Shown: positions 9,976 through 62,938 of the stretch, piece by piece
How the letters are laid out: each line of letters opens with the position of its first letter
Numbering within the stretch: position 1 is the stretch's first letter
Origin: a phage
Reading direction: 5' to 3' (one strand)
Length of the DNA: 64,000 nucleotides
Assembly (NCBI GenBank): GCA_031520405.1
Contig: GCA_031520405.1_4842.1
Program-made: the position numbers and the translations under genes
The notes under the pieces: model-generated
Seen by the model: the letters and a program-made list of their open reading frames with translations, nothing else
What the model was told of the DNA's origin: nothing
Database searches by the model: none

Positions 9976-10554
9976 TTATAGACCAAATTTAGTGCGCCAC
10001 TTTTCAACTTTGTGTTCTATAGCATGTTCTACTTTAACGATCGTGTTGATATGGTTTTGATTATACCCACACGCCAATTTGGCAGTATTGCGTATCAGAT
10101 TTGAAACCAGGTCTACCATATTATCTTCTGAACGTTGAGGTTGGTTCAGTAAACGAGTGATGCGGCCTTTGTAATGATTAACCATCGCAAGATATTTGTC
10201 TATAGTTTCAACACCACTGTAGAACCAATAATCCTCCAACGTATGTTGACTGAGATCAGTTGTGTGATTGGCCATAGCCAAAGCAAACACCATGGAGTCA
10301 AAGATTTCTTCTTTGGACATAGACCCATGTTGTTGAACTTGTTGATAATCCACAACATATAATAGATCCAGAGCCGAGATGATAACGTCCGCCACTTCAC
10401 CGTTCAGGGGTTCGGATGCAGCGATTCCATAAAGCACATCTGATAGTTCACAAGACTCTTCCACGAGTTTGCAATATACAAACACAGGAGAACGATTAGG
10501 ATCGCGCTGGCTGAGTTCATATGATGTGTTGAAGATAGTTTTTAGAAAATTCAT
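9976..10554 (-). CDS. possible MazG-like nucleotide pyrophosphohydrolase
   Basis: weak EExxE...D helix pattern; 192 aa. Confidence 0.3.
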   Translation of the reverse strand: MNFLKTIFNTSYELSQRDPNRSPVFVYCKLVEESCELSDVLYGIAASEPLNGEVADVIISALDLLYVVDYQQVQQHGSMSKEEIFDSMVFALAMANHTTDLSQHTLEDYWFYSGVETIDKYLAMVNHYKGRITRLLNQPQRSEDNMVDLVSNLIRNTAKLACGYNQNHINTIVKVEHAIEHKVEKWRTKFGL

Positions 10555-19724: not shown

Positions 19725-20098
19725 TTTCGTTTACTCCGATTTTTATATTTCTTAGCCTGACGTTTATGTTGGGCGGCTCCATATAGGCGCGGCGGCTTTT
19801 GATAACGTTGTGACGCAATTATGTCTCTGTCATCGGCTTCACAATACGAAATATCTGCCTTCCGTAACTGAGCCACCGCTTGAGATACCAAGGTTTTGCG
19901 TTCACTTTCTACCAGATCATCACAAATTATCATGCGTTCACCTGGTTCACAACAACGTTTAGGAATATCGTCTACACTGATACATTCTACTTCAACACCT
20001 TTCAACTTTTCTTGAAGGATAATGGCCATAGTCCGAGCGCCGATTCCTCCTCCAATAATCGCTATCTTTCTTGTCTTGTCTGTCATGTTCTTGCCCAT
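19721..20098 (-). CDS. Rossmann-fold protein (GxGxxG)
   Basis: IAIIGGGIGA motif; track start 20116 lies inside a terminator/promoter hairpin so an internal Met was chosen (uncertain). Confidence 0.35.
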   Translation of the reverse strand: MGKNMTDKTRKIAIIGGGIGARTMAIILQEKLKGVEVECISVDDIPKRCCEPGERMIICDDLVESERKTLVSQAVAQLRKADISYCEADDRDIIASQRYQKPPRLYGAAQHKRQAKKYKNRSKRK

Positions 20099-23559: not shown

Positions 23560-23584
23560 TGATAATATCCTCACTTTATAGGTG

Positions 23585-23596
23585 AGGATATTTATA
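23585..23596 (-). promoter_or_regulatory. T4-type late promoter box TATAAATA with downstream 5'UTR hairpin
   Basis: minus-sense TATAAATA about 28 nt upstream of ATG at 23559; 10-bp inverted repeat atatcctcac/gtgaggatat between them. Confidence 0.45.
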
Positions 23597-42364: not shown

Positions 42365-42371
42365 CTAAATA
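42365..42371 (+). promoter_or_regulatory. late-promoter-like CTAAATA box upstream of gp6
   Basis: ggCTAAATAtc about 40 nt upstream of ATG 42412. Confidence 0.4.
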
Positions 42372-42411
42372 TCTTCAACACCATATTCAAACTCAGGTGA
42401 TGGAGATTATC

Positions 42412-46226: not shown

Positions 46227-46264
46227 CTAAATACCCCTAGATGACATGAATACATTTAGGGGTA
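46227..46264 (+). promoter_or_regulatory. late-promoter-like box CTAAATA plus SD-sequestering 5'UTR hairpin
   Basis: CTAAATA then hairpin tacccct...aggggta with AGGGG SD in the 3' arm, ATG at 46271. Confidence 0.45.
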
Positions 46265-46270
46265 TTACAA

Positions 46271-49200
46271 ATGGCCAACAAACCAACACAGCCTCTTTTC
46301 CCTTTGGGTTTAGAAACTTCTGAGTCTTCGAACATAAAAGGCTTCAACAACTCCGGCACTATTGAGCATTCCCCTGGTGCCGTAATGACATTTCCTGAAG
46401 ATACTGAAGTTACAGGTCTTCCATCTTCTGTGCGTTACAATCCTGATAGTGATGAATTTGAAGGTTATTACGAAAACGGTGGTTGGCTGTCTTTGGGGGG
46501 CGGTGGAATACGCTGGGAAACGCTCCCTCACGCTCCCTCTAGCAATTTGTTAGAAGGTCGTGGCTATCTCATTAATAATACCACAGGGACATCTACAGTG
46601 GTTCTCCCTTCCCCTACGCGTATTGGGGATTCCGTTACTATTTGTGATGCTTATGGGAAATTTGCCACTTACCCATTGACCGTGTCTCCTTCTGGAAATA
46701 ATTTGTATGGTTCCACTGAAGACATGGCTATAACAACTGATAATGTTTCAGCAACGTTCACTTGGTCTGGACCTGAACAAGGTTGGGTTATCACATCCGG
46801 AGTCGGTCTTGGTCAAGGCCGTGTCTACAGTCGTGAAATCTTTACACAAATTTTGGCGTCTGAAACAAGTGCTGTCACTCTCAATACTCCACCAATAATC
46901 GTGGACGTGTATGCTGACGGAAAACGTCTTGCGGAATCCAAATATTCACTAGATGGGAATGTAATCACTTTCAGTCCTTCTTTGTCAGCCAACACAGAAC
47001 TTCAGGTGATTGAATATACTCCTATTCAATTGGGTAATGGCGGTGGTTCTGGTTCTTCTACGATTACTTGGGTCTATAATGGGGGTTCAGCGATTGGCGG
47101 TGAAACCGAAATCACGTTAGACATCGTTGTTGATGATGTTCCGGCCATTGATATAAACGGAAGTCGCCAGTATAAAAATCTGGGGTTCACATTCGATCCA
47201 TTAACCAGTAAAATCACTCTTGCGCAAGAACTGGATGCAGAGGATGAAGTTGTTGTAATTATCAATGGAACGCCAAACATCTATAATCAAATTGATTATA
47301 CTTTGCGGGAAGTGGCTCGTGTAACCAATGTTAAAGATACAGAGGTCATTTATTTTAGTGTTGGTGCTGTGTTAAGCGGGTATAAAGTTATCTATGATAA
47401 AGTAACACAGAGATCATATTTTATTCCAGAGCTACCGACTGGAACCACGGCAGTCAGCCTTAGTTCTTCGGCTGTACTTGTGCATTCTGCTGGTAGTGTT
47501 GATCTGGGCGCATTAGCTGTATCTCGTGAAGAATACGTAACATTGTCTGGGACATTTGATTCTGGTGCTGTCATCAATACTAAAAATGAATTACTCACTC
47601 ACACGGATGGAAAGTATCGTTGGGATGGTACACTTCCTAAAACCGTTGCTCCTGGCTCAACTCCTATTACAACAGGCGGCGTTGGTGTTGGCGCATGGAT
47701 TAGTGTTGGTGATGCTTCATTGAGAAGTGACTTATTAAAAGATGATGGATACACACTTATTCCATCAGTGCAAATTCAGCAATGGAGAGCTGAGGGTGAC
47801 ATTAGAGGGTGGGGGGCTGTAGACGGTGGATTCAATGATTCAGCCATTTTAGCGGCTCTAAACTCTGATTCACCGAGTATAAAGCTCGGCGGAAGAGGAT
47901 TTGTTTCCAAGGTTTCCGATACCATTAACCACAAAAGCAATAAAGTGATACATAGTGGTTCCCTGAATTTTCAGTTTGTTGGAGGAACTCAGCAAGAGAA
48001 ATCCGGGATACTTATGGCTAACATCGCTAATGCCAAAGTGATTGATGTTGATATAACCGGAACCCTGGACGGCGGCATTCGTGGGTACGGTGGAAGCAAT
48101 ATCGTTATTGACGGAGTGAGTGTTCACGACATCGGGGTTTCAGCATTGACTGGCGAGTGCGGCATGGGGATCTGGTTCGGAGACTACGCACACTATGAGA
48201 ATCAAACTGATGGACTATTAATACAAAATTGCCGCATTAACAATATTGGCGGTGTAGGCATCATGCGCGGTGACGGCATTGGTGTTTATAATGCTAAAAA
48301 CTTTACTATCAGAAACAATAACATCACCACTGTAAACAGAATGGGGATATCAGCAGGTAGTGATTGTTTATATTTCAAAATACACGGGAACTATATTGGC
48401 GATATCTTATTGGCAGGTATAGATATAGAACCAGATGCACATTATACCGCTTCAAATTTCAAGATATACAATAACACTATTATTGGTTTTGCCTCTAGAT
48501 TCGTGACTGCGACTGGCGGTGTTGGTCAGCTTTTTGGTATTGATGTACACGCCAACACTTCATACGGTAAAGTTTACAAGAACATACTGTCGGCAGGTCA
48601 GTATGGAACAGAAGCATTCCATATAGGAAATAATGCAGATGAGATTGAGATTACAGATAACGATCTGATAGGCGGTGCTGTTGTAATCCCATTATTCATT
48701 AAGACATATGATGGTAGTGGTAGTAAGCACATCAAAATAAACCGCAACAGGGCAAAGAGAACATGTAAATCATTTGCAGATGTTGCCATGTCTGAAGATG
48801 TTTATATTTCTGAAAATGTATTCTCTGGAAATAGTTCTGCTGATAGCTTTTTCTTAAGGCTATCGACAATATCTGGGCTTAATGTTGACTATAACCGGTC
48901 CAGTGATACAACAAACTTCATTAAGGCATTTGACGCTGGAAACACATCAAGTATGAAGGTCACTAATAATAATGCATACACTCTTTCAGATGGTATAGAC
49001 ATACTAACTTCTGGTCCACTGGCTGAATTTATTGCTTCTGGAAACACTATTTTATGCCCAGCATCCAACAAAGGAATTTCACTGGAAGTAACAGGTTCAG
49101 GTTCTATTTCTAATATTAGGCTCCGTGGCAACATAATTTATAATGCCACAACTAAAATATATGTATCACCTGCTGCCACTGGATGGGATATGTTAACCAA

Positions 49201-49306
49201 AAATAGCAGGTATGATCTGTCTGGAGTCGCAAATGGCACTCAGCTATTCGAACTATCAAGGAATAGAGTTACTCAATTTTTAAACGGAACATGGTATGAT
49301 GGTTAA
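46271..49306 (+). CDS. tailspike protein with beta-helix (putative depolymerase), 1011 aa
   Basis: shared tailspike module (VKDTEVIYF...YRWDGTLPKTVAPGSTP...GGVGVGAWISVGD) plus Gly/Asn-rich parallel beta-helix repeats. Confidence 0.7.
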   Translation: MANKPTQPLFPLGLETSESSNIKGFNNSGTIEHSPGAVMTFPEDTEVTGLPSSVRYNPDSDEFEGYYENGGWLSLGGGGIRWETLPHAPSSNLLEGRGYLINNTTGTSTVVLPSPTRIGDSVTICDAYGKFATYPLTVSPSGNNLYGSTEDMAITTDNVSATFTWSGPEQGWVITSGVGLGQGRVYSREIFTQILASETSAVTLNTPPIIVDVYADGKRLAESKYSLDGNVITFSPSLSANTELQVIEYTPIQLGNGGGSGSSTITWVYNGGSAIGGETEITLDIVVDDVPAIDINGSRQYKNLGFTFDPLTSKITLAQELDAEDEVVVIINGTPNIYNQIDYTLREVARVTNVKDTEVIYFSVGAVLSGYKVIYDKVTQRSYFIPELPTGTTAVSLSSSAVLVHSAGSVDLGALAVSREEYVTLSGTFDSGAVINTKNELLTHTDGKYRWDGTLPKTVAPGSTPITTGGVGVGAWISVGDASLRSDLLKDDGYTLIPSVQIQQWRAEGDIRGWGAVDGGFNDSAILAALNSDSPSIKLGGRGFVSKVSDTINHKSNKVIHSGSLNFQFVGGTQQEKSGILMANIANAKVIDVDITGTLDGGIRGYGGSNIVIDGVSVHDIGVSALTGECGMGIWFGDYAHYENQTDGLLIQNCRINNIGGVGIMRGDGIGVYNAKNFTIRNNNITTVNRMGISAGSDCLYFKIHGNYIGDILLAGIDIEPDAHYTASNFKIYNNTIIGFASRFVTATGGVGQLFGIDVHANTSYGKVYKNILSAGQYGTEAFHIGNNADEIEITDNDLIGGAVVIPLFIKTYDGSGSKHIKINRNRAKRTCKSFADVAMSEDVYISENVFSGNSSADSFFLRLSTISGLNVDYNRSSDTTNFIKAFDAGNTSSMKVTNNNAYTLSDGIDILTSGPLAEFIASGNTILCPASNKGISLEVTGSGSISNIRLRGNIIYNATTKIYVSPAATGWDMLTKNSRYDLSGVANGTQLFELSRNRVTQFLNGTWYDG

Positions 49307-49314
49307 GTTATTTA

Positions 49315-49342
49315 AAAACCCCGCTTCGGCGGGGTTCTTATT
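49315..49342 (+). terminator. rho-independent terminator
   Basis: hairpin aacccc-gcttcggc-ggggtt then cttatt. Confidence 0.5.
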
Positions 49343-49414
49343 ATACCTTTGTTCATAAATTTTATTAGTTCAGACTAAATACTCCATATTGGTCATCCTT
49401 TATGGAGTATTATC
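49318..49414 (+). repeat. intergenic repeat element copy 1 (terminator + late-promoter box + UTR hairpin)
   Basis: 59 nt identical to 51383..51441 region; contains gaCTAAATAc and hairpin tactccata/tatggagta. Confidence 0.7.
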
Positions 49415-51328
49415 ATGATTTCTCAATTCAATCAACCACGCGGCTCCACTTCCATAGAAGTTAACAAACAATCTATCGCTCGAAATTTCGGTGTCAAAGA
49501 AGACGAAGTCATTTATTTCACTGTCGGTATTGATCTCAGCGGATTTAAAGTAATTTATGATGAGTCTACCCAACGGGCTTATTCTCTTCCTTCGGGTATT
49601 GTTTCAGGAACGATTGCGATAAGTCTGAACGAACAAGCCATCCTTACTCATTCTTCTGGCTCTGTTGACCTTGGGGAATTAGCAGTAAGCCGCGAAGAAT
49701 ATGTGACTTTACCTGGTTCTTTTAATTTCGGTCATACCATTAATGTGAAAAATGAACTTCTTGTTCACGATGATAAAAAATATCGATGGGATGGTTCTTT
49801 GCCAAAGGTAGTTGCCGCTGGTTCTACACCCGATAACTCAGGCGGTGTTGGTTTAGGTGCATGGTTGAGTGTTGGTGATGTATCATTGAGAGCGGATTTG
49901 GCTAGTGGCACACTTGGTAAAGGTGCGAATCTTTTGACATATAAGTCACAAGTATCAAACTCGGTTGCTATAAGCCAACAAATTAAAAATAGTGAAAGGG
50001 TTTCTGTTTTTGAGTATTTGGCTAAGCCTATTCCTGGTTTTGATAATGCATCAGCATTCGCTGCTATGAAAGCTGATGCTGAAGCAGGTGTTGTAATAAC
50101 AGTACCTTCAGGAGTATATGAAACATCTGAACCACTGAGATTCACAAAACCTGTTCAAATATGGTTTGATGTAGGAGTGCGAATAAAACTTACATCTGGT
50201 GCACATGACCATGTTGTGGAAATAGATTTACGTGGACAAGATGAGGGGTATTGGGGGTATAAACCTTTCTTTGGTGGTGGCAGGGTTATTCTTGATGGTC
50301 TTGGTCATGCTAAGTACGGGCTATCACTTCGTGGCGTAATATCTGGTGGTTTTCCTGGTATTCAAGCAACCAATATAACAACTGCTGGGTTATATCTGGC
50401 TTGGACTCAATGCTGTACATACACTGATTTTATTTGCTCTAATAACGTGGAGGTTTTCACAACAAAACCCCTGCACGGTATTTTAGTAGATAAAGATAAC
50501 AATCCGTCAAATCCACGTGGTACATCATGCGATATCTTTATTAACCCATGTGTAGAGCACACTGCGGGTGATGGGTTTGTAGGACTAAGCCTGATGAACT
50601 CAATGGTTATAAACGGAACAATCGAGGGAAACCTTGGCGCAGGCATTTCATTGGGGCATCCTACAGATAATACTTACACTGCACTGGGTAATACATTTCT
50701 TGGTATTGACCTTGAGGTGAACACGCTAACTGATATTGTGATTAACAAGTTTTCACACATGAACGAGTTCATAGGACTCAAATCAGGTTATTCATCTCCA
50801 TCAGTTCAGGTCAGAGGTTTTCGTAACTATTTCTCTGGAGGTACTGTTAGCGATTTCGACTTCAGGCCAGATAGCCATGACAACCACGTACAGGATGTAA
50901 CACTTTTAGCTGAGTTTCCTGTTGTTAATGATGAAGGGATAAGAAACACTTATGAAAGATTATGGAATCTTAACAATGCTCAAGTTAACGTAAGCACAAA
51001 CCCTGTTAACACAAGAAGCAATCAGCCTATAGCGGGAGGTGAGACAGTAACGTTAGACCCATATAAAGCATCCTATGTTGTATGCACCGCAACAGGAACA
51101 CCTATTAATATAGTTTCTGCCACCAAAAAATTAGATGGAGCAAGAATAGATTTGACAATTCACAATGCATCAGGAACAGATTCATTAGTCATTAACTGGG
51201 CATCAGATATTAGAGTTGGCAATTTTACTCCTCCACCAGCAGGTAAACATAAGGGGTTATCACTAAGATATGATGCTAATTACGGTTATTGGACTGTAGT
51301 TGGTGTTGGACTGGACGCTTTATCGTGA
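49415..51328 (+). CDS. tailspike protein, 637 aa
   Basis: N-terminal shared module (VKEDEVIYF...YRWDGSLPKVVAAGSTP...GGVGLGAWLSVGD) followed by beta-helix-like region. Confidence 0.7.
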   Translation: MISQFNQPRGSTSIEVNKQSIARNFGVKEDEVIYFTVGIDLSGFKVIYDESTQRAYSLPSGIVSGTIAISLNEQAILTHSSGSVDLGELAVSREEYVTLPGSFNFGHTINVKNELLVHDDKKYRWDGSLPKVVAAGSTPDNSGGVGLGAWLSVGDVSLRADLASGTLGKGANLLTYKSQVSNSVAISQQIKNSERVSVFEYLAKPIPGFDNASAFAAMKADAEAGVVITVPSGVYETSEPLRFTKPVQIWFDVGVRIKLTSGAHDHVVEIDLRGQDEGYWGYKPFFGGGRVILDGLGHAKYGLSLRGVISGGFPGIQATNITTAGLYLAWTQCCTYTDFICSNNVEVFTTKPLHGILVDKDNNPSNPRGTSCDIFINPCVEHTAGDGFVGLSLMNSMVINGTIEGNLGAGISLGHPTDNTYTALGNTFLGIDLEVNTLTDIVINKFSHMNEFIGLKSGYSSPSVQVRGFRNYFSGGTVSDFDFRPDSHDNHVQDVTLLAEFPVVNDEGIRNTYERLWNLNNAQVNVSTNPVNTRSNQPIAGGETVTLDPYKASYVVCTATGTPINIVSATKKLDGARIDLTIHNASGTDSLVINWASDIRVGNFTPPPAGKHKGLSLRYDANYGYWTVVGVGLDALS

Positions 51329-51372
51329 CATCACCAACATTATAAAATGATGTTGTTGCTGTTAAAATTTAA

Positions 51373-51402
51373 ATAACCCCTCTTCGGCGGGGTTCTTATT
51401 AT
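51373..51402 (+). terminator. rho-independent terminator
   Basis: hairpin aacccc-tcttcggc-ggggtt then cttatt. Confidence 0.5.
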
Positions 51403-51475
51403 ACCTTTGTTCATAAATTTTATTAGTTCAGACTAAATACCCCATATTGGCAAATCCTTTATGGGGTATTTTCAA
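51376..51475 (+). repeat. intergenic repeat element copy 2
   Basis: near-identical to 49318..49414; hairpin arms carry compensatory change (taccccata/tatggggta). Confidence 0.7.
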
Positions 51476-54241
51476 ATGACCAGAAATGTAGAAGAATTAT
51501 TCGGCGGCGTAATCACAGCTCCTCACCAGATTCCTTTCACGTATAAATCAAATGTCGGTGGAGAAACTTTCCTTTCTTTGCCGTTCCATCCCGTCACTGG
51601 TGTTATCACAATCAACGGTGGTATGCAAGTTCCGTTAGACAACTTTGAAATCGAAGGAAATACGTTGAATCTCGGGCGCGCATTGTCCAAAGGCGATGTT
51701 GTGTATTGCTTATTCGATAAAATTCTTTCGCCAGAAGATACAGCCAAAGGTATCCGCATATACAAATTTCAGGCCGTGGGAGGTGAAACCGAGTTCACTC
51801 CTGATTTCACATCCTATGGTGTCCAATCTCTTTATATCGGTGGCGAGTACAAAACACCCGAAATTGAATATTCCTATAACAGCACGACAGGGAAAGTGTC
51901 TTTGCAAACTGCACTGACTGCAGGCGTTTGGGTAGTCGCTGAAATGTCTGTTAAACAACCGAATATCAGTCCGGCGTTTGACCGAAGTATTCAAGAAATC
52001 GCCCGTTCTGCTAATGTAAAAGACTCTGAAGTCATCGTTAGTACGGACACCATATCTTTGTTGGATGGGAAGAAAGTTGTTTATGATATAGCGACGCAAA
52101 CCAGTTATGGTTTACCAACCATTCCTGATGGTTCTGTCATTTCTTCTGTATCTGCTGGGAAATTGAATTACAACCCAGGTGATGTGCAGGTTGATTTGTT
52201 GCCTTTAGAAGATTCATTTATTAATGTGATAAACACTCTGGGGCGCAATGATGGTGCCAAGTATATTGGAGAATGCCATTCTGTTGCTGATCTCAGGAAT
52301 ACTGAACCCACTATGGATGGACAACGCATTATTCTTAAGCAACACACTGCGGGTACTCTTCTTGGTGGAGGGGTATTCCGTGCGTTAATTGATGGTACAG
52401 GAAAGACTGATAATAACGGTACTGTGATCAAAACTGTTGGCGGCGCGGCATGGTTACGTGTTAATGCTGATAGAGTTAACCCATTCATGTTTGGTGCTTT
52501 GGGTGGTTCTAATGATGATACTATTCCAGTACAATCTTGTGTGGATAGTGGTAAGGCCACACAATTAACTGATGCACATTACGTTAGCAATATCCAGTTA
52601 AAATATAATACGTCGTCTATTTATGGGTCTGGATTACATTACTCAAGGTTGCATCAGTTGCCTTCTGCTACTGGGAATTGTATTACCATAAAAGATACAT
52701 GCTCCCTTATTGTATTAGACGCCTTTGGGGTATATGGCACAGGTGCACAACAAGGCATGCCATTTACTGCGGGCACAACAGGTATCTATGTAGAAACTCC
52801 TTCAGGTCTCTCAGCCGATTATCCGTTCCACACTACCGCAGACCCAAGACGCGACTTGTGTATTTCTAAGGTCCATATAGCAGGTTTTGATGAATATGGG
52901 TTAAATATTGATAGTGGTAACTTTAGTGTTACTACAGATTCTCTTTTAGTCAACCACATCAATCAGGTGGGTGTCCGTTGTGCTACTACTGATTGGACTT
53001 GGACAAATATCCAGGTTAATACCTGCGGTAAACAATGTCTGGTTCTTGATGGTTGTGGTAATGGTCGTATTATTGGCGGTAAATTCATTTGGGCTAACTG
53101 GCAACCTTATGGTACAGTAGGACAGTTCCCAGGCATTACTATTAATAACAGCCAGAATATGGTTATTAATGGTATTGAGGTACAAGATTGTGGCGGGAAT
53201 GGCATTGAGATTAGCGATTCATATTCAATTTCCATGAACGGATTGAACACCAATCGTAACGGCATCAATGCTAACAACACTTTCTACAACATCGTATTTA
53301 ACAAAAGCGATGCAGTTATCAACGGATTCGTAGGACTCAATTATGCCGCGAATAGTGGTTCAGGTGCTAACTCTAGTGCAGGCAATTTTCAGTTCCTGTC
53401 TAATGATTGTAGTGTCACCATTAATGGTGTGGTTGAGACTGGTTATATGGGCATTAACTTTATTGGTGATAACAATATTATCAACCCCACCAATTCCGAC
53501 CTGAGCATTAACGGATTGGTTAATTATTCCAAGACTGGTTTGCAAACCATGAACGAGACCCCTACATTTGATGGTGTTAGCACTACACCTGTTTATGTAA
53601 GTGTCCCATCTTCTGTAGGGCAAGTAAATGGTCTGAGACTATCACAAGCCAACAAAGATAAATTACTGTATTCAAGAACAGCAGGTCCAGAAGGTATTAC
53701 CATGGCTGCTGTTGTAGTACCCACCATATCTGGAGCTGAAGTATTTAACTTCATGGCCATTGGTTCAGGGTTTAGTGATACATCCAACAGTCTTCATCTT
53801 CAATTAGTTATAGACGCTTCTGGAAAACAAACAATTGCTTTGCTATTGGGGGGCGATGGTACAACCCAAATTTTATCTGGGGATTTACCTAACGACCTTA
53901 AACTACAAAGTGGTGTACCATATCATATAGCTATTGGTGCTAAACCTGGATATTTCTGGTGGAGTATTCTTAATATTCAGACGGGTAAGAGAATCAGACG
54001 GTCATTCCGAGGCGCTTATTTAGCCGTACCATTTAATTCTATATTCGGATTAACTTCTTCATTAACATTCTTCTCGGATAGCAATGCTGGTGGGGATGCT
54101 TGTTCTGGGGTTGGTGCTAAAGTGTATGTTGGTATGTTCTCTTCTGAGAACGATTATGTAGCTTCACGATACTACAACCTGATTAATCCTGTAGACCCTA
54201 CTAAGTTAATTAGTTACCGTATATTGGATTCTTCTATTTAA
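51476..54241 (+). CDS. tailspike protein, 921 aa
   Basis: start set at ATG following UTR hairpin (track 51461); internal shared module (ARSANVKDSEVIV...) and long beta-helix-like repeats. Confidence 0.65.
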   Translation: MTRNVEELFGGVITAPHQIPFTYKSNVGGETFLSLPFHPVTGVITINGGMQVPLDNFEIEGNTLNLGRALSKGDVVYCLFDKILSPEDTAKGIRIYKFQAVGGETEFTPDFTSYGVQSLYIGGEYKTPEIEYSYNSTTGKVSLQTALTAGVWVVAEMSVKQPNISPAFDRSIQEIARSANVKDSEVIVSTDTISLLDGKKVVYDIATQTSYGLPTIPDGSVISSVSAGKLNYNPGDVQVDLLPLEDSFINVINTLGRNDGAKYIGECHSVADLRNTEPTMDGQRIILKQHTAGTLLGGGVFRALIDGTGKTDNNGTVIKTVGGAAWLRVNADRVNPFMFGALGGSNDDTIPVQSCVDSGKATQLTDAHYVSNIQLKYNTSSIYGSGLHYSRLHQLPSATGNCITIKDTCSLIVLDAFGVYGTGAQQGMPFTAGTTGIYVETPSGLSADYPFHTTADPRRDLCISKVHIAGFDEYGLNIDSGNFSVTTDSLLVNHINQVGVRCATTDWTWTNIQVNTCGKQCLVLDGCGNGRIIGGKFIWANWQPYGTVGQFPGITINNSQNMVINGIEVQDCGGNGIEISDSYSISMNGLNTNRNGINANNTFYNIVFNKSDAVINGFVGLNYAANSGSGANSSAGNFQFLSNDCSVTINGVVETGYMGINFIGDNNIINPTNSDLSINGLVNYSKTGLQTMNETPTFDGVSTTPVYVSVPSSVGQVNGLRLSQANKDKLLYSRTAGPEGITMAAVVVPTISGAEVFNFMAIGSGFSDTSNSLHLQLVIDASGKQTIALLLGGDGTTQILSGDLPNDLKLQSGVPYHIAIGAKPGYFWWSILNIQTGKRIRRSFRGAYLAVPFNSIFGLTSSLTFFSDSNAGGDACSGVGAKVYVGMFSSENDYVASRYYNLINPVDPTKLISYRILDSSI

Positions 54242-54245
54242 AAAT

Positions 54246-54272
54246 ATACCCCTCTTCGGAGGGGTCTTTACT
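54246..54272 (+). terminator. rho-independent terminator
   Basis: hairpin acccctc-ttcg-gaggggt followed by cttt. Confidence 0.5.
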
Positions 54273-54292
54273 AGAAAAACAATGAGGTACTT

Positions 54293-56338
54293 ATGAACGA
54301 AATGTTTAGTCAAGGTGGTAAAGGTTCGACTGGAATCTTAACCAATAAACAAGCAGTAGCCAGACACTTTGGTGTTAAACAATCTGAGGTTGTTTATGCC
54401 AAATCAGGACAGTCCTTGTCTGGTTATAAAGTGATCTACGATAAGGTATCTCAACGTGCCTACGCTCTCCCTTCTAACATTGGTACTGTAACGGTCACTA
54501 GTTTAGTCGACGGCATTCTCACGCACTCTGGAGGCACCGTAGATTTGGGTGCATTGGCTGTGTTAAGGGAAGAGTATGTTACTCTTGTTGAAAATTTTAC
54601 TTCTGGATTTACGATTCGTGTCAAGAACGAAGTCGTGAGCGATGGGGTGAGTCTATATCGTTGGGATGGTGCTTTACCTAAAACCGTTGCACCTGGCTCA
54701 ACACCTGAAACAACTGGTGGCGTTGGTTTAGGTGCATGGTTGAGTGTTGGTGATGCCACATTAAGAAGTGAATTAACATTGAATGTTTCAGATATTAATG
54801 GATTGATTAACGTTAATACAAGAAACAAAAATTTCATGTATGTTACATCATCGTTTCGAGGGGGTGGAGGTGCTGGTGTATATGTATGGAATCCCACAAA
54901 AAATAAATCATTACATAACGGAGCGACTATCATAGACCCATCAAGGACTCTACCGATAAACTGGGATTCTCAGTCGCAAATAGATGATTGGTTTACAATT
55001 TCATCCACAGATGGGGTGGGATGTTTTGAATTAATTGAGGGGGAGAGCTCGGTTAATCCATTGCAGTGGGGCTGCTTGGGCGATTCATCAAAAGACAACC
55101 CACATAGTGGGTATGATAACTCTTTAATATCTGATTATGTTGATGACTACGCTGAATCAGTAAATAAAACAGTATTTTGGCCTCACGGTATATTTAGATT
55201 CACTGGTCCACAGCAAAGAAAGACAAGGCATGATGGACATGAATACATTAGAATGAATAGTGAGTTTTCTACTGTTTTTATTATTGACAATCAGACGCCA
55301 ATAACTTTTCTAAAAGGAAAAGGGATTGGGACCGACCATCAGAAACTGTATGCCCACGGTTCAAGAGGAATAGAATATATTGGCAACCCTAAACGAATCC
55401 ATACTCTTCTTGATGCATACATGTACACGACATCATGGAAGCATTTTGCTGTTCGTGGATTTAAATATGGATTTGATATAAATTTTGTCTCTTTCCATAT
55501 TCAGAATTTCTATTTTACTGATAATGAAATTGGAATTTACCCAAAACCACTAATGCCGCCATTGCAAGCTGCCGCACCAAGTACAATGCTATCATTATCT
55601 TACGGTGCATTTGATTTCAGTAAGAATGGAATAGTATTCACTGAGAGATTTGGGCTTGGCGAGGCAGAAAACGTCATAAACGTAAATCTATCTTCTGTTG
55701 TGTTCGAACAAAATGAATTTGACGGATTCAGTTGTGCTAACTATCCATTACCTGTCGGTGTGAAAAACGCCAACAACAGGGTTATGAACCTTACAGTAAA
55801 TAATTGCTGGGCTGAACTTAACGGTAGAGCTGGTTTCAACTTCGAGAACGCTGACGTAACTGCGAATTCATTGAGAATAAATGAAGCGGATGAATTGATT
55901 TATCCAGCAGGGGCAAGGACATACTCTATTGATGTAAATGGTGTAAGGGAAACAAACGTACTAAAATCGTCACTTTATGGAGCGCATAATATAGAAGCTC
56001 CGGTATCTGGTCAAATGATAATAAAACCAGATGGTAGCATTTATTCTGGTGCGACAATGCCTTTTACTGTTACAAAGACATCGGAAGGTCAATTTAAATT
56101 AACGAATGCATCATCTACTCAGGGGTTTCAATACGTATCAATAGAGGTTATGCCATTCGATAGAGCAAGGATTGATACTGTTGTGACATGTGACCCATCA
56201 GATGTCGCAGCGTTCGTTCAGTTTGGTACAATATCAAGCTATAAGATTGAATTTACATCGAGAGGCACATCTACATTTGTAACTCCAGAGGCTGGTTTCG
56301 CAGTTAAATTCTCATGGGTTCACCCTCTTAATAATTAA
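54293..56338 (+). CDS. tailspike protein, 681 aa
   Basis: N-terminal shared module (VKQSEVVYA...YRWDGALPKTVAPGSTP...GGVGLGAWLSVGD). Confidence 0.65.
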   Translation: MNEMFSQGGKGSTGILTNKQAVARHFGVKQSEVVYAKSGQSLSGYKVIYDKVSQRAYALPSNIGTVTVTSLVDGILTHSGGTVDLGALAVLREEYVTLVENFTSGFTIRVKNEVVSDGVSLYRWDGALPKTVAPGSTPETTGGVGLGAWLSVGDATLRSELTLNVSDINGLINVNTRNKNFMYVTSSFRGGGGAGVYVWNPTKNKSLHNGATIIDPSRTLPINWDSQSQIDDWFTISSTDGVGCFELIEGESSVNPLQWGCLGDSSKDNPHSGYDNSLISDYVDDYAESVNKTVFWPHGIFRFTGPQQRKTRHDGHEYIRMNSEFSTVFIIDNQTPITFLKGKGIGTDHQKLYAHGSRGIEYIGNPKRIHTLLDAYMYTTSWKHFAVRGFKYGFDINFVSFHIQNFYFTDNEIGIYPKPLMPPLQAAAPSTMLSLSYGAFDFSKNGIVFTERFGLGEAENVINVNLSSVVFEQNEFDGFSCANYPLPVGVKNANNRVMNLTVNNCWAELNGRAGFNFENADVTANSLRINEADELIYPAGARTYSIDVNGVRETNVLKSSLYGAHNIEAPVSGQMIIKPDGSIYSGATMPFTVTKTSEGQFKLTNASSTQGFQYVSIEVMPFDRARIDTVVTCDPSDVAAFVQFGTISSYKIEFTSRGTSTFVTPEAGFAVKFSWVHPLNN

Positions 56339-56432: not shown

Positions 56433-59400
56433 ATGCAATCTACAAATTTAAACCGTCGCCCGTATTGGGATGACTGGAATCCTGGGAAACGTTTTTCACG
56501 GATTCTTTTTCGTCCGATGCCTATCAAGGTTCAGACTCGCGAACTGAACCAGATGCAGACTATTCTTCAGGATCAAATTGAAAAACTGGGCAACCATTTG
56601 TTCAAAGATGGTTCTATGGTTATCCCTGGCGGTCTGACGATCACTAACGCCGCAGTCTCTTTGAAATTCACTTTGGCGGGTGGTACTGAATTCACTGATC
56701 TGGAAGGTATTTCTGAACTCTACGTTTTGGGGAAAGACAATAACGCCAAAGCGCGTGTGCTGTCTCTTGAACGTGATCTGTCTGCTCCTGATACAATGCT
56801 GGCTATCCTTGAGATGACTGAAGCGGGTAATGCTGACGGATTCCATGTTAACGATAATCTGTATTTCCAGACTTACGACGTGAATGATAATTTCATTCGT
56901 ATTGGTTATGGTATCGCAGCTGCAGTGACTGGTTCTATCGTCGCTCGTATGACGAAAGGCGTTTACTTCATTCGTGGGATGTTCCTAGACGTTGATGACG
57001 CAACTCTTATCGTTGACAAAACTTCTAACATCACTTCCCACCGCATCGGATTTAAAGTCACCGAAACCATTGTCACTGAAACAGAAGATGAATCCCTTTA
57101 TTCAAATGCTCAGGGAACGATTAACTCCAAAGCCCCAGGCGCTCATCGTCTTCGAATAGATCTGGTCTTATCTCGATTTGATTATGATGCTGTGGTTGAA
57201 GACTTTGTTGAACTGGCCAAAGTTCGTGATGGTAAAATCCAGTCTATGGTGACTCAGTCCACCTATAATATTCTGGAAGACACGTTGGCCCAACGGACGT
57301 ATGAAACCAACGGCGATTACAACGTTTCGACCCATCAGATCGATATCCGTGAACACCTGAAAGTCAATAACAATGGCGGGGTATTCGGTGCTGCTGATGG
57401 CGGTGACGAAAGTAAATTCGTGTCTGTAATGAAACCAGGTATTTCCTATGTTCGTGGTCGCCGTATCGAAAACGTCGGGGAAGAGTTGGTGATCGTTGAT
57501 AAGGCGCGGGATACCGATGTCCTGAATAACACCCCTGTTGCGGTGGCCACAGGCAATTATCTGGTCACCAAGAATTCTAAAGGTGTGCCAGTGATATCCC
57601 GCACCGTTCGATACAAATTACTGAATGCTTCAGGCGTTACCCAGGCTACAGCACTTTGTATATCAGCTGAACGTAATTCAACAGAATTTCGTCTGTATAT
57701 GCGCGACCTGGTCGTTACTGGCGATGCATCCACTATCACCAAAGTGTCTTACGAAGAAAGCGGTATCACCATGTTCTCTGCTGAACTGGAATCCAATCAG
57801 TTTAACCAGAGTTCTATGATAGATCTGATCTTCTCTCTTCCGGTATTCGGTGTCAAGACTTTAGCACCAACTGGCTCCGTGGATATCAACTACACTGTTC
57901 TCAGAACGTATAAAGTGACGCTAGACAGCAGTGGTTCTGGTTCTATTTCAGCCCCGCTGGGATATAGTTTTTCCCCAGAATTTTCGTTATACTCTGCAGC
58001 GAAATCTGATGGTTCTGAAGCGCAGTTCGATATCTCTGGTTCTTTGTCTTTGACTGGTTCTCCGGTCGGTTCGGCGCTGCAGATTTCTCTGGGCAGTGGT
58101 AATGCTAACCAGTCAATCAATTTGCTGGCGCTGATGATTCGTACCACGGCCACAATCAAAACGAAGACCATCACTGAAACAACTGAAACAGTGACGTTCA
58201 CCTCGCAGACTAGCCGCCCTTTGGCGAATCACGATGGTTGGAAATTGGTGTCGGTCAAAAACGATACTGGCGCAGACGTGACCTCCAGCTTCGTCCTAGA
58301 TGGCGGACAGCGTGATGCAGGGTATTACAAGTCTAACTTGTTATCCAGCGCTGGAGCAATCTCAGGGACGTATACAGTGGTGTATCAATACTTCGCCCAC
58401 AGTTCCGGTGATTTCTTCTCTGCTGATTCGTATACTTCGATGGATTATAAAGATATCCCGAATTATACATCTTCTACATCAGGCGCGGTGTACGGCCTGG
58501 CAGATAGTTTGGATTTCCGTCCGAAAATCACCAACGGAACTTCTGACACAGATATGGTTCGTCCAAACACTGCAGTTATTCTGGACACAGAATATTATCT
58601 GCCGCGTATTGACGCGATTTATCTGGCAGACAACGGTGTGTTTGGTGTGGCTCGAGGCATTAGTTCTAATAATCTGGCTTCTCCAGCAATCCCAGCGAAC
58701 GCCATGCGTTTGTATGAATTGTTGATCCCGCCGTATACACCGAATATTGATGATATCCAAATTCGAACTATTGATAATCGTCGTTATACGATGCGCGATA
58801 TCGGTAAACTGGAAACCCGTATTTCCAATGTTGAATACTATACCTCTCTGTCACAGCTGGAATCTTCAGCGATGACACAGCAAGTGTTTGACCCCATTAC
58901 GGGTAATCCTCGTTTCAAAAATGGTATTGCAGCTGATCCGTTCAAAGACTTCCGGTTGATTGATGACTTGTCTGAAGATTGGATGGGTTCTATCGATACC
59001 GAAAACGGACGTCTGCGCCCGTTTGTACAACAAAACGTTGTTGACATGACTCCGGTTGGCTGGAACAAAGTGATGGATGGGATGGTGGTTTGTAATTACA
59101 CGCCTGAAATCTCGGTGAACCAAGAATATGCGACGACGACGATCAACGTTAACCCGTATGCAGTATTCAATTGGGAAGGTTTCTTGAAGATTAACCCGAC
59201 CACAGACTACTGGTTCGAAAACTATTATGTTTCACCGCGTATTATCAATGAAACGATCAACACCCGTGGTACTGTACAAGAAGGTTCAGTGTATGGAACA
59301 TGGCGTACTGTTTCTGTTTCTGATCGTGTTTGGGAACCGCATGGTGCTGGTGGTGTGTGGTGGGGATATCGTTACCGCACGACTGTTTCTGCCCGTGATG

Positions 59401-61271
59401 TCACCACATATACATACACGGACAAAACAACCACGACCATGACTGGTGAACAGATTGTGGAGACGCAAGTTATCCCATACATGCGAGAGATCGATATTTC
59501 TTTCGACGCATCTGGGCTGCGACCTTTCACTCGTATGTATGCGTTCTTCTCTGGTCGTGACGTCAATCTGTATTGCAAACCGAATGGTGGTAATTTCGGT
59601 GACCAAATCACCACTGATGCCAATGGTGCTGTTAAAGGTATATTCCACGTTCCACAGAACGATACAATCAAGTTCAACACAGGCGACAACGTGTTCCGCT
59701 TAACGGATAGCCCTGTTGACAGTAAATCTGCGGATGATACACTGACCAATGCAGAAATTGTTCATAAATCTTTCGGTAAGAAACAAGGTATTCAAAAGAC
59801 CTTTGTCAACACTCGTGTCCTGGGTTACACTGCTAGTACTCGCACCGAAACTTCTACTTCTGAAGTGGTTGTTGATCAATGGCGTGATCCGATTGCCCAA
59901 TCGTTTATGGTGGCGACTAAGAATGGCGGCGAGTATATCGAAGGCGTGGAAGTATTCTTCTCTACCAAGTCACGTGATGTTCCGATCACTCTGGAAATTC
60001 GCGAGATGGAGAATGGCTTACCTTCTCATACAGTCATTACTCGTAAAACTTTGAACCCGTCTGAAGTGACGATCTCTACAGACTCTTCCGGCGGTACGAA
60101 GTTCACCTTTGATTATCCGGTGTATCTGCAAGCATCGACTGAGTTTGCTATCGTTTTGTTGGCGAATACTCAGGATTACAACGCGTATATCGCGGAAATG
60201 GGCAAGAAAAACCTTCTGTCCAACGAATATATCGCCAAACAACCGTATACAGGGGTGTTCTTCACTTCTTCAAACGGTTCTACATGGTCTCCAAACCAAA
60301 TGGCTGATATGAAATTCCGCATATATCGTTGTAACTTCGCTGCGGGACAGAACGTTGTAACATTTGATCCGAAGCTCGGGCCAAAACAACGTCCGTTGGG
60401 ATTGAACACTCTGAACTGCGTAAGCGGGTCTTCTGTTGTGACTGTGTTTGCACCTGGTCATGGTTTGGTTGCTGGGAACAATGTCACTCTTTCTGAATTG
60501 ACAGGCGGTTGTGGCTTTACTCCTGAACAACTTAACAAAACGTTTACTGTGACAGATGCGAGCTATACTTCATTCAAGATTGACGTCGGTACGGCAGCAG
60601 ACAGCAATGGACAAATCGGTGGAGATAATGCTTCTTTCTTGGGCAATTATCTGGTTGATATGTTCTATGCCAGCGTTACCAATTCGGCTCTGGAAGGTTC
60701 AATTCTGAAATTGGAATACCGTTATCGCGATGCCACTTCAAATTCTATGTCTGATTGGGCTGAGTTTGAAACTGACACTGACGTGGCATTGCCGACTGAA
60801 GGTATCTATCGTCAGGTCGGGGATTTCCAAATCCGAGCCACCATGACGCGTAGTGAAAACAACGTGTACACTGCTCCAATGATTGATGGCGATGACCTGA
60901 GCGTAATCTTCAACTCATACGGTGTGGATCCATTTGAAGATGTCTTCAAATACGTGACAAAGGACATCGGATTTGATAATCCGTGTTCTACTGTGAAGTT
61001 GTTCTTTGGTGCAATGCTCCCATCTCAGTCTTCGATGAAGGTGCAGGTGAAACTTCTACGAGCAGGGCAAGAGATGGATAGTGTGGCTTGGGAAGACGTC
61101 ACCCCAACTTCGCCTCTGGTTAACGACGGTTCCACATTCTTTGAATATGAGTATGACAAGACTGTGGCGAGCAATAACCCGTTTGTTGGCCTGAAAGTCC
61201 GAGCGCTTGTACGGGGGAACCGCGTTGCTCCTCCATCATTCAAAGACTTCCGTCTTATTGCTCTGGCATAA
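56433..61271 (+). CDS. large virion structural protein (1612 aa; baseplate/fibre-associated)
   Basis: very long ORF between tailspikes and neck genes, late-promoter box upstream; no confident homolog recalled. Confidence 0.5.
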   Translation: MQSTNLNRRPYWDDWNPGKRFSRILFRPMPIKVQTRELNQMQTILQDQIEKLGNHLFKDGSMVIPGGLTITNAAVSLKFTLAGGTEFTDLEGISELYVLGKDNNAKARVLSLERDLSAPDTMLAILEMTEAGNADGFHVNDNLYFQTYDVNDNFIRIGYGIAAAVTGSIVARMTKGVYFIRGMFLDVDDATLIVDKTSNITSHRIGFKVTETIVTETEDESLYSNAQGTINSKAPGAHRLRIDLVLSRFDYDAVVEDFVELAKVRDGKIQSMVTQSTYNILEDTLAQRTYETNGDYNVSTHQIDIREHLKVNNNGGVFGAADGGDESKFVSVMKPGISYVRGRRIENVGEELVIVDKARDTDVLNNTPVAVATGNYLVTKNSKGVPVISRTVRYKLLNASGVTQATALCISAERNSTEFRLYMRDLVVTGDASTITKVSYEESGITMFSAELESNQFNQSSMIDLIFSLPVFGVKTLAPTGSVDINYTVLRTYKVTLDSSGSGSISAPLGYSFSPEFSLYSAAKSDGSEAQFDISGSLSLTGSPVGSALQISLGSGNANQSINLLALMIRTTATIKTKTITETTETVTFTSQTSRPLANHDGWKLVSVKNDTGADVTSSFVLDGGQRDAGYYKSNLLSSAGAISGTYTVVYQYFAHSSGDFFSADSYTSMDYKDIPNYTSSTSGAVYGLADSLDFRPKITNGTSDTDMVRPNTAVILDTEYYLPRIDAIYLADNGVFGVARGISSNNLASPAIPANAMRLYELLIPPYTPNIDDIQIRTIDNRRYTMRDIGKLETRISNVEYYTSLSQLESSAMTQQVFDPITGNPRFKNGIAADPFKDFRLIDDLSEDWMGSIDTENGRLRPFVQQNVVDMTPVGWNKVMDGMVVCNYTPEISVNQEYATTTINVNPYAVFNWEGFLKINPTTDYWFENYYVSPRIINETINTRGTVQEGSVYGTWRTVSVSDRVWEPHGAGGVWWGYRYRTTVSARDVTTYTYTDKTTTTMTGEQIVETQVIPYMREIDISFDASGLRPFTRMYAFFSGRDVNLYCKPNGGNFGDQITTDANGAVKGIFHVPQNDTIKFNTGDNVFRLTDSPVDSKSADDTLTNAEIVHKSFGKKQGIQKTFVNTRVLGYTASTRTETSTSEVVVDQWRDPIAQSFMVATKNGGEYIEGVEVFFSTKSRDVPITLEIREMENGLPSHTVITRKTLNPSEVTISTDSSGGTKFTFDYPVYLQASTEFAIVLLANTQDYNAYIAEMGKKNLLSNEYIAKQPYTGVFFTSSNGSTWSPNQMADMKFRIYRCNFAAGQNVVTFDPKLGPKQRPLGLNTLNCVSGSSVVTVFAPGHGLVAGNNVTLSELTGGCGFTPEQLNKTFTVTDASYTSFKIDVGTAADSNGQIGGDNASFLGNYLVDMFYASVTNSALEGSILKLEYRYRDATSNSMSDWAEFETDTDVALPTEGIYRQVGDFQIRATMTRSENNVYTAPMIDGDDLSVIFNSYGVDPFEDVFKYVTKDIGFDNPCSTVKLFFGAMLPSQSSMKVQVKLLRAGQEMDSVAWEDVTPTSPLVNDGSTFFEYEYDKTVASNNPFVGLKVRALVRGNRVAPPSFKDFRLIALA

Positions 61272-62908: not shown

Positions 62909-62932
62909 CTAAATACCTTCAAAATTGAGGGT
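62909..62932 (+). promoter_or_regulatory. late-promoter-like CTAAATA box plus 5'UTR hairpin
   Basis: gaCTAAATAcc then hairpin accttc...gagggt containing GAGGG SD, ATG at 62939. Confidence 0.4.
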
Positions 62933-62938
62933 AAAGTC

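Follow-up and report, generated by a model that had tools for sequence, protein, structure and literature searches.

The 64,000-nucleotide (nt) stretch of phage DNA analysed here (GenBank assembly GCA_031520405.1, contig GCA_031520405.1_4842.1; hereafter the window) contains two nearly identical intergenic spacers, each ending in a hairpin that buries the Shine-Dalgarno (SD) sequence of the tailspike gene behind it. The 5' arm of the stem overlaps the putative late promoter box of the same gene, a point missed by the first-pass annotation of this DNA, which had been made from the sequence alone. By analogy with phage T4, the element appears to be a late promoter embedded in a hairpin that sequesters the ribosome binding site (RBS), situated before tailspike and other virion genes of the Ackermannviridae. 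We think it probable, with some reserve, that such a promoter-embedded hairpin silences only upstream or read-through RNA, by the mechanism known from T4. Sequence matches identify the phage as a Kuttervirus (Ackermannviridae, ViI/CBA120-like); across 8.5 kilobases (kb) its closest match is Escherichia phage vB_EcoM_JN03 (99.5%), with CBA120 at 97%.

A promoter box within the hairpin stem

The spacers (copy 1, 49318-49414; copy 2, 51376-51475) agree at 91 positions over their 97 and 100 nt, the longest exact run being 59 nt (49324-49382 = 51382-51440), and a repeat search of the window returned the pair as 82 nt at 95% identity. Two near-identical spacers with 59 identical nt had been claimed in the first-pass annotation, as had the succession of terminator, CTAAATA, SD-burying hairpin and ATG; both descriptions hold. 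In each copy a terminator-like stem-loop follows the upstream stop codon, and a 38-nt spacer, CTAAATA, the hairpin and the start codon come after it in that order. The same duplicate pair precedes TSP3 and TSP2 in CBA120 and in IMG/VR genomes, and the duplication is not private to the phage studied here. The sequence ATAAATTTTATT (49351-49362 and 51409-51420), 12 nt 5' of the box, shows no variation between the two copies, CBA120 and the IMG/VR spacers; it contains ATAAATT, a loose likeness of the late box, and could be a weak second promoter or could reflect mere recent common descent. The elements of the two copies are as follows.

49317-49346 (stem-loop 49317-49336), plus strand: copy 1, intrinsic-terminator-like stem-loop, AACCCCGC-TTCG-GCGGGGTT with tail CTTATTATAC, after the TSP4-like gene
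49375-49381, plus strand: copy 1, predicted late promoter box CTAAATA, predicted start at about 49386-49388
49378-49411, plus strand: copy 1, hairpin with 5' arm 49378-49388 (AAUACUCCAUA, reaching into the box) and 3' arm 49401-49411 (UAUGGAGUAUU); TSP3-like ATG at 49415
51375-51404 (stem-loop 51375-51394), plus strand: copy 2, terminator-like stem-loop, CCCCTC/GGCGGGG with tail CTTATTATAC, after the TSP3-like gene
51433-51439, plus strand: copy 2, predicted late promoter box CTAAATA, predicted start at about 51444-51446
51435-51471, plus strand: copy 2, hairpin with 5' arm 51435-51446 (AAAUACCCCAUA) and 3' arm 51460-51471 (UAUGGGGUAUUU); TSP2-like ATG at 51476

The hairpin, described in the first-pass annotation as one of 9 base pairs (bp), is real but longer. 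In copy 1 the stem has 11 bp and is capped by an apical GG/CC mini-helix (-17.5 kcal/mol, z = -4.6); in copy 2 it has 12 bp (-18.9 kcal/mol, z = -4.85); in neither case was any of 200 shuffled sequences as stable. The SD lies inside the 3' arm, as GGAG at 49404-49407 in copy 1 and GGGG at 51463-51466 in copy 2, and the sole difference between the arms of the two copies is a U-A pair in one and a C-G pair in the other. A reading of the hairpin as a terminator, on either strand, was rejected: no run of T adjoins it, its loops are long and the minus strand has no gene converging on it. A scan of 42000-64000 on both strands against Rfam 15 gave only sub-threshold terminator-stem matches, the best scoring 27.5 bits against a gathering score of 50.

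That CTAAATA acts as a gp55-type promoter is suggested by its form and by its placement. When the last A of the box is numbered -6, as in T4, CTAAATA lines up with positions -12 to -6 of T4's TATAAATA box, which spans -13 to -6 with its first T at -13 (PMC2988020). The sites in the window have the form of a gp55-type promoter, namely a TATAAATA-type box of 8 bp (NTAAATA) unaccompanied by a -35 element. Nine of the 12 occurrences of CTAAATA in the window lie 20-45 nt 5' of a co-oriented gene start, where chance would place about 0.2 by our own estimate that roughly 2% of positions qualify. T4-like forms of the box also occur, TATAAATA before a minus-strand open reading frame (ORF) of 55 amino acids (aa) at 23560 and ATAAATA before another minus-strand ORF at 37314. 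In four Ackermannviridae lineages (CBA120, Zahir, LHE287 and Bue1) the box precedes almost all virion genes, including those for wedge, tailspike, neck, sheath, tube, portal, scaffold and capsid. In the leaders four or five pyrimidines follow the box, and then an A at the fifth or sixth position 3' of it, that is, at the expected +1; a pyrimidine at -1 followed by a purine at +1 is the usual start context. A scan of the spacer for sigma-70 promoters found nothing at either box, and that reading was rejected for want of a consensus match there.

The box itself has been described before. These phages have been ascribed two 'unique regulatory motifs', of which CTAAATAcCcc is one (PMC7283392), and the late promoter motif of this sequence is credited in PMC7283392 and PMC9965104 to Adriaenssens et al. 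2012; copy 2 matches it fully and copy 1 with one change (CTAAATACTCC). CBA120, ViI and AG3 encode homologues of T4 gp55, gp33 and gp45 (PMC3184105, PMC3121705). In the record of Salmonella phage SPTD1 (GenBank OP991882.2) a 'Kuttervirus late gene promoter' is annotated at the orthologous spot; the 7-nt feature (170-182 region) covers ACCCCAT, 6 nt 3' of the true CTAAATA, as if the coordinates had been shifted when the record was annotated.

The geometry of box and stem carries the argument. Pairing takes in positions -5 to -2 in every one of 33 unique leaders, and box positions -9 to -6 in 21-31 of them. The bubble of a T4 late promoter extends from -12 to +2, and with CTAAATA as a -10-like element its own polymerase cannot transcribe the stem nucleotides -9 to -2. 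The first-pass annotation had placed the hairpin within the first 40 nt of the late transcript, and here it falls short, since the stem pairs -9 to -2, outside the RNA that a gp55-type promoter would itself produce. Its broader suggestion of a link between transcription start and translation is supported. It had listed transcript 5' ends downstream of the hairpin as a refutation; ends falling within the hairpin would on the T4 analogy be the expected outcome, and would define the mechanism as one in which the hairpin can form on RNA begun upstream and on no other. Cut at the predicted +1, the leaders fold with only -0.4 to -5.2 kcal/mol, as against -13 to -21 kcal/mol for the full leaders. The cost of opening the SD of the strong hairpins is likewise 11.5-17.1 kcal/mol on RNA that includes upstream sequence and 2.6-4.6 kcal/mol on RNA beginning at the predicted +1; for copy 1 the values are 14.7 (read-through) and 3.2 kcal/mol (own-promoter RNA), and for copy 2 they are 16.5 and 4.6 kcal/mol.

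The arrangement recurs before other late genes, as the first-pass annotation had proposed. Of the related leaders that it named, those at 46271 (-19.1 kcal/mol), at 62939 (-14.1 kcal/mol) and before the small minus-strand ORF (ATG 23560) stand, while the one at 42412 is weaker (-11.6 kcal/mol); two beyond its list were found on the minus strand, at 34477 (-18.7 kcal/mol) and 37314 (about -12 kcal/mol). The SD is thereby held in a 3' arm in both copies and in six further leaders of the window, two of them weaker, the strong ones folding with -14 to -19 kcal/mol; strong hairpins overall range from -14 to -21 kcal/mol, with z from -4.6 to -5.8. All share one design, consisting of box, pyrimidine tract, loop, SD plus UAU(U), and ATG. 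The six further leaders are listed below.

46227-46266, plus strand: TSP4 leader, box 46227-46233, stem of 14 bp, 46230-46243/46253-46266 (CCCCUAGAUG/CAUUUAGGGG), -19.1 kcal/mol, ATG 46271
62909-62933, plus strand: gp14 leader, box 62909-62915, arms 62914-62921/62926-62933 (UACCUUCA/UGAGGGUA), -14.1 kcal/mol, ATG 62939
42365-42407, plus strand: gp6 leader, weaker, box 42365-42371, arms AUCUUCA/UGGAGAU with inner CACC/GGUG, -11.6 kcal/mol, z -2.1, ATG 42412
34480-34510, minus strand: leader of a 149-aa gene (CBA120 orf229-like), box 34510-34504, arms 34506-34496/34490-34480, -18.7 kcal/mol, z -5.8, ATG 34477
23564-23596, minus strand: leader of the 55-aa ORF, box TATAAATA 23596-23589, arms AUAUCCUCAC/GUGAGGAUAU, about -14 to -16 kcal/mol, ATG 23560
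37315-37347, minus strand: leader of a 77-aa ORF, preceded by a terminator, box ATAAATA 37347-37341, arms AAUAGAUCU/AGGUCUAUU, about -12 kcal/mol, ATG 37314

A leader conserved for late genes generally, which the first-pass annotation had also proposed, does not emerge. The promoters of the sheath, tube, portal, scaffold and major capsid genes carry the box with little or no hairpin, SD pairing being weak or lacking. Before 56433 the box is accompanied by no more than a weak hairpin, and before 33992 on the minus strand by none. The gp14 promoter of Erwinia phage Bue1 lacks the hairpin and that of Kuttervirus has it, so that the hairpin is not universal among box-bearing late genes. Elsewhere in the window the region from 37.7 to 39.0 kb holds three phage tRNAs (Ser, Asn, Met); on the minus strand at 38936-39018, the base next to the 3' CCA end of the tRNA-Met (38943-39018) is the first of a CTAAATA, behind which come a 10-bp hairpin and a 65-aa ORF. 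A tRNA gene and a late promoter thus seem to adjoin directly.

Covariation and selection on the helix

The arms of the hairpin vary by gene, and each 3' arm fits its own 5' arm: CCCCUAG/CUAGGGG, C(C/U)CCAUA/UAUGG(G/A)G, CCUUCA/UGAGGG, CCCCCAU/AUGGGGG, CCCCUGAUG/CGUCAGGGG and UCCUCAC/GUGAGGA. Over 48 unique promoters the duplex energy averages -8.9 kcal/mol for cognate arms and -5.5 kcal/mol for non-cognate ones, and none of 10,000 permutations is as good. Within the strong class, which comprises six arm families, the cognate mean is -15.8 kcal/mol against -9.9 kcal/mol off the diagonal. Given a plain MAFFT alignment of 16 diverse leaders, T4 e among them, RNAalifold returns a helix of 9 pairs, 7 of which show compensatory changes. 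Taken over 8 helix pairs, 98.4% of cells are paired, compared with 81.8% after shuffling (0 of 500) and 41-54% in slid controls, and the covariation score is 0.475 compared with 0.162 (again 0 of 500). The variable extensions of the arms covary as well (UAG/CUA, AUA/UAU, UUCA/UGAG, CAU/AUG and UGAUG/CGUCA), with variable covarying pairs at -1, +1 and +2. Collectively, these results argue strongly that the helix is under selection.

The difference between the two copies can be followed in more genomes. The first-pass annotation had read it as the compensatory replacement of a T-A pair by a C-G pair. The 85-nt leader of TSP3 has matches in 160 phage records, and of these Salmonella phage heyday alone is identical to the window (CUCC/GGAG); the others differ at two bases or more, and the closest, including JN03, differ at two (97.6% identical) and have CCCC/GGGG where read. 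No intermediate with a single changed base occurs among these 160 records. As far as the sequences tell, then, the replacement is real, a true double compensatory change, and one clean evolutionary event. A scan of IMG/VR with the upstream 20-mer found 11 loci, all CCCC/GGGG, and one with an 18-mer allowing either pyrimidine at -4 found 39 loci with no additional CUCC/GGAG leader. When any base was allowed at -4, the metagenome scan gave 47 loci, of which three are true leaders (all CCCC/GGGG), the other 44 being chance matches without a 3' arm that serve as a negative control. Some 13-14 matches on environmental IMG/VR contigs carry CTAAATACTCCATATTGGGAAAGTATTGAC, the 18-nt 5' half of copy 1, amid unrelated flanks and without the 3' arm; these appear to be an unrelated recurrent sequence.

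Such data bear on the simplest alternative, that no structure has been selected at all and that a C-rich promoter tract and a G-rich SD are complementary by coincidence. The CCCC/GGGG core is indeed common to most leaders, and even non-cognate arms pair with about -10 kcal/mol. Coincidence does not account for variable extensions that covary, with double changes in 6 of 8 helix pairs, for a cognate assignment that is the best of 720 permutations, or for a double C-to-U and G-to-A change without intermediates in the 160 records; and the 44 unrelated metagenomic matches to the 18-nt 5' half have no 3' arm. We regard this explanation as scarcely credible.

A role of the DNA itself is also conceivable. 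The boundaries of about 100 bp might serve as homology for the exchange or deletion of tailspike modules, and the inverted repeat might then be incidental, bind a protein or form a cruciform. The two copies are direct repeats flanking TSP3, and the mosaic character of tailspike genes is known (PMC10892097). Beyond Kuttervirus, the leader with a nearly unchanged loop stands before tailspike or fibre genes in Klebsiella phage Zahir (Taipeivirus), in E. coli phage LHE287, in Bue1, a Nezavisimistyvirus whose gp14 is only 56% identical, and in a 152,427-bp IMG/VR genome. What recombination leaves unexplained is base-pair covariation among unrelated arms and a 3' arm that always coincides with the SD, and loops of 4-17 nt disfavour cruciforms. 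A purely DNA-level origin therefore seems very improbable to us; a recombination role may well coexist with a function of the hairpin, which it leaves unexplained.

Which RNA would be silenced

Each copy, in the T4-type reading that we prefer, would be a complete cassette boundary, composed of a terminator for the upstream gene, a gp55-type late box and an anti-SD hairpin. The 5' arm would be made of the last box nucleotides and the adjoining pyrimidine tract, acting as the anti-SD, and the 3' arm of the SD and UAUU. Polymerase would start about 6 nt 3' of the box, and the gene's own mRNA would then lack about 8 of the 11-12 stem pairs, with its SD free. RNA entering from upstream would carry the entire hairpin with the SD locked; its sources would be read-through of a terminator or, at TSP4, orf229 and the 55-aa ORF, the lack of one. 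Each gene would in this way be translated essentially from its own late promoter alone. Anatomy, stability, covariation and a geometry identical to that of the T4 gene e leader are features of the leaders themselves; what we infer from them is where transcription starts, that read-through RNA exists and is silent, and what the benefit would be.

For upstream RNA to matter it must reach the hairpin, and the terminators and gene order speak to this. Both copies have a G+C-rich stem-loop with a T-rich tail behind a stop codon and are predicted terminators; the tails have at least five T in eight and are interrupted. The stem of copy 1 has 8 pairs, 6 of them G-C, and a loop of 4. That of copy 2 has 6 pairs, a loop of 8 and one mismatch, owing to a G-to-T change at 51381 in its 5' half (CCCCTC, compared with CCCCGC in copy 1 and most relatives). 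The mismatch leads us to expect weaker termination after TSP3; termination at copy 2 is probably partial, which would give the downstream hairpin something to act on. The genes of the locus, assigned by synteny with the CBA120 annotation, are given below; the homologues of TSP4, TSP3, TSP2 and TSP1 correspond to CBA120 orf213 to orf210.

42412 (ATG), plus strand: gp6 baseplate wedge gene, upstream of the tailspike cluster
46271-49306, plus strand: TSP4-like gene
49415-51328, plus strand: TSP3-like gene
51476-54241, plus strand: TSP2-like gene
54293-56338, plus strand: TSP1-like gene
56433-61271, plus strand: gene for a large VriC-like protein
62939 (ATG), plus strand: gp14 neck gene, downstream of the tailspike cluster, identity checked

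The repeat search also found a 243-nt coding segment with 67-70% identity in the TSP4-, TSP3- and TSP1-like genes (47483-47725, 49649-49891 and 54524-54766), probably the conserved N-terminal module that the literature ties to tailspike recombination.

The TSP4 box starts 3 nt past the stop of the preceding co-oriented ORF (46224/46227) with no terminator between them, and none separates the upstream ORF from the box at 34477 (orf229) or at the 55-aa ORF (23560), both on the minus strand. TSP1 (ATG 54293) has no NTAAATA box in 54242-54292, and the same spacer of CBA120 is likewise without CTAAATA. The TSP2-TSP1 spacer has a terminator-like hairpin at 54248-54265 (CCCCUCUUCGGAGGGG) with a poor T tail, followed by a free SD, GAGG. 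Because the box is absent, the T tail poor and the SD free, TSP1 is probably expressed by read-through from the TSP2 promoter. Together with the missing terminators at TSP4, orf229 and the 55-aa ORF, the boxless TSP1 implies, by layout, that read-through RNA must exist.

The benefit could be correct timing, or a tailspike output independent of upstream transcription. With each tailspike made from its own promoter, it is plausible that cumulative read-through would not skew the amounts of the four proteins in their complex. A bolder version, which we hold only tentatively and consider rather doubtful as a whole, is that the hairpin is a systematic translational insulator in the Ackermannviridae that fixes the stoichiometry of the four-tailspike complex and of a few low-copy virion proteins, the cassette travelling with the tailspike modules as homology for their exchange.

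Several points weigh against the T4-type reading. No mapped transcript 5' ends or transcriptomes for Ackermannviridae or Kuttervirus were found in the literature, and the start site is placed by analogy with T4. The predicted own-promoter RNA keeps a weak pairing of loop CC with the SD (-3.5 to -5 kcal/mol). Most hairpin-bearing genes sit inside late clusters and not, as in T4, behind early units, which makes prevention of early translation a less obvious rationale. The temporal rationale of T4 fits well for the 55-aa ORF, which sits within a long array of minus-strand genes, that for DNA polymerase among them, and more poorly for the tailspike cluster; the small genes behind the minus-strand hairpins belong, in a PHROG search, to families without known function, and no timing-sensitive function such as lysis was found among them. 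TSP3 and TSP2 already stand behind terminators, so that a second barrier looks redundant. On the minus strand at 35711-35770, moreover, a 397-aa gene (35710-34517, CBA120 orf228-like) has its SD, GGAG, buried by a hairpin of -20 kcal/mol (UUCUAUACUCCUGUAG/CUACAGGAGAAAUAGAA) with no recognisable late promoter box; a promoter-in-stem model leaves it unexplained, and it suggests that some SD hairpins in this phage are handled in another way. Finally, low-copy virion proteins have the strongest hairpins and high-copy ones have none, a pattern that throttling within the late mRNA would fit too.

The last two points lead to the model in line with the first-pass annotation, in which the hairpin lies inside the late mRNA itself, with the start at or upstream of the stem or at a second upstream promoter, and throttles or regulates the initiation of translation of low-copy virion proteins, some factor or condition perhaps opening it. 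Strong hairpins at tailspikes, neck and small virion genes, with none at sheath, tube, portal, scaffold and capsid, suit dosage tuning, the conserved ATAAATTTTATT 5' of the box could yield RNA containing the hairpin, and the boxless example at 35710 exists. Yet box nucleotides and positions -5 to -2, which the gene's own transcript would not contain, are paired in essentially all leaders, and an SD-opening cost of 12-17 kcal/mol would nearly abolish translation of proteins that every virion needs. The upstream ATAAATT, sole candidate for a second promoter, agrees with the box at only 5 of 7 positions and is absent from other hairpin leaders, and T4 gene e, with an identical layout, works in the opposite way. 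We judge the throttle unlikely.

Less likely again, in our estimation, is a hairpin that serves the stability or processing of polycistronic or read-through RNA, as protection, as a nuclease target or as a RegB-like shield. Hairpins beside terminators at gene boundaries would suit it, Kutterviruses are annotated with RegB-like and RegA-like proteins (PMC10892097), and T4 RegB cleaves GGAG in SD regions (PMC3014915). Most of the SDs here are GGGG, however, and not the RegB target GGAG/U, and the 3' arm, which always covers the SD and ends 4-9 nt 5' of the ATG, has the signature of translational occlusion. Stems of 8-14 bp are also short for RNase III. For an RNA thermometer, a stability of -17 to -19 kcal/mol seems too great.

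Implications and comparison with known systems

That the box is the family's late promoter was already published, and a T4 specialist would not be surprised by the element. What the T4-type reading would add is that a classic post-transcriptional device of T4 reaches a further phage family and serves receptor-binding (tailspike) genes there, and that the family motif CTAAATAcCcc divides into two parts, a promoter box and an anti-SD arm. The distinction would have practical consequences. Engineering of Ackermannviridae includes tailspike swapping and reporter genes driven by the late promoter (PMC9965104), and translation of a transgene from read-through RNA would depend on whether the cCcc tract and its matching SD are kept or dropped; deletion or recombination can be foreseen at the direct repeats on either side of TSP3. 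The reading can be put to the test sharply, since it predicts that primary 5' ends lie near 49386-49388 and 51444-51446.

Compared with the published motif, the sequence and its places are identical; the difference lies in the cCcc tract, which the published motif counts as regulatory sequence and which here covaries with the SD. It is replaced in some leaders by other pyrimidine tracts (UCUUC, CCUUC, CUCC) and is absent at many box-bearing late genes. Because it covaries with the SD and is missing at many boxed genes, cCcc makes more sense as the anti-SD arm of a hairpin that is optional than as an obligatory promoter element. Vibrio phage K484, a distant relative, has the boxes and no SD hairpins. 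In K484 (19960-19980 and 10295-10320) a CTAAATA lies 5 nt 5' of the gp14 ATG (CTAAATAtttcaATG), whose A is the sixth base after the box, and if T4 spacing holds the gp14 mRNA would be leaderless.

The spacers also resemble the terminator and promoter intergenic cassettes of T4-like phages, with which they share a G+C-rich stem, a tetraloop, a T-containing tail and the promoter of the next gene; they differ in their interrupted T tails (CTTATTATAC) and in the mismatched stem of copy 2.

The closest parallel is the late leader of T4. For T4 e, soc, 49 and I-TevI, the SD, the AUG or both are sequestered on longer transcripts initiated upstream, and the late promoters there encode the 5' strand of the structure, so that late transcripts lack that strand and are translated, with an effect of about 100-fold for gene e (PMC3014915). 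The same device is known for I-TevI, I-TevII, I-TevIII, segB and mobE, the last from Aeh1 (PMC2988022). The T4 gene e leader, ttTATAAATAccttcTATAAATActtaggaggtattATG, has the layout TATAAATA-CCUUC...GGAGGUAUU-AUG, folds as AAUACCUUCUA/UAGGAGGUAUU with -14.9 kcal/mol and aligns with the Kuttervirus leaders. The two share a TATAAATA-type box directly upstream, a 5' arm that begins in the box and continues as the pyrimidine anti-SD, a 3' arm made of the SD and UAUU just 5' of the AUG, a similar stability (-14.9 compared with -14 to -21 kcal/mol) and the gp55/gp33/gp45 late transcription system, known here from the relatives CBA120, ViI and AG3. They differ in the phage family, in the CTAAATA variant and in having a single box where T4 e has tandem boxes. 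In T4 the device stands at late genes within early or middle units, whereas here it stands at tailspike, neck and other virion genes in late clusters, often behind a terminator. The Kuttervirus leaders nonetheless have both hallmarks of the T4 type, a stable helix containing the SD and a predicted late promoter in the 5' strand of that helix.

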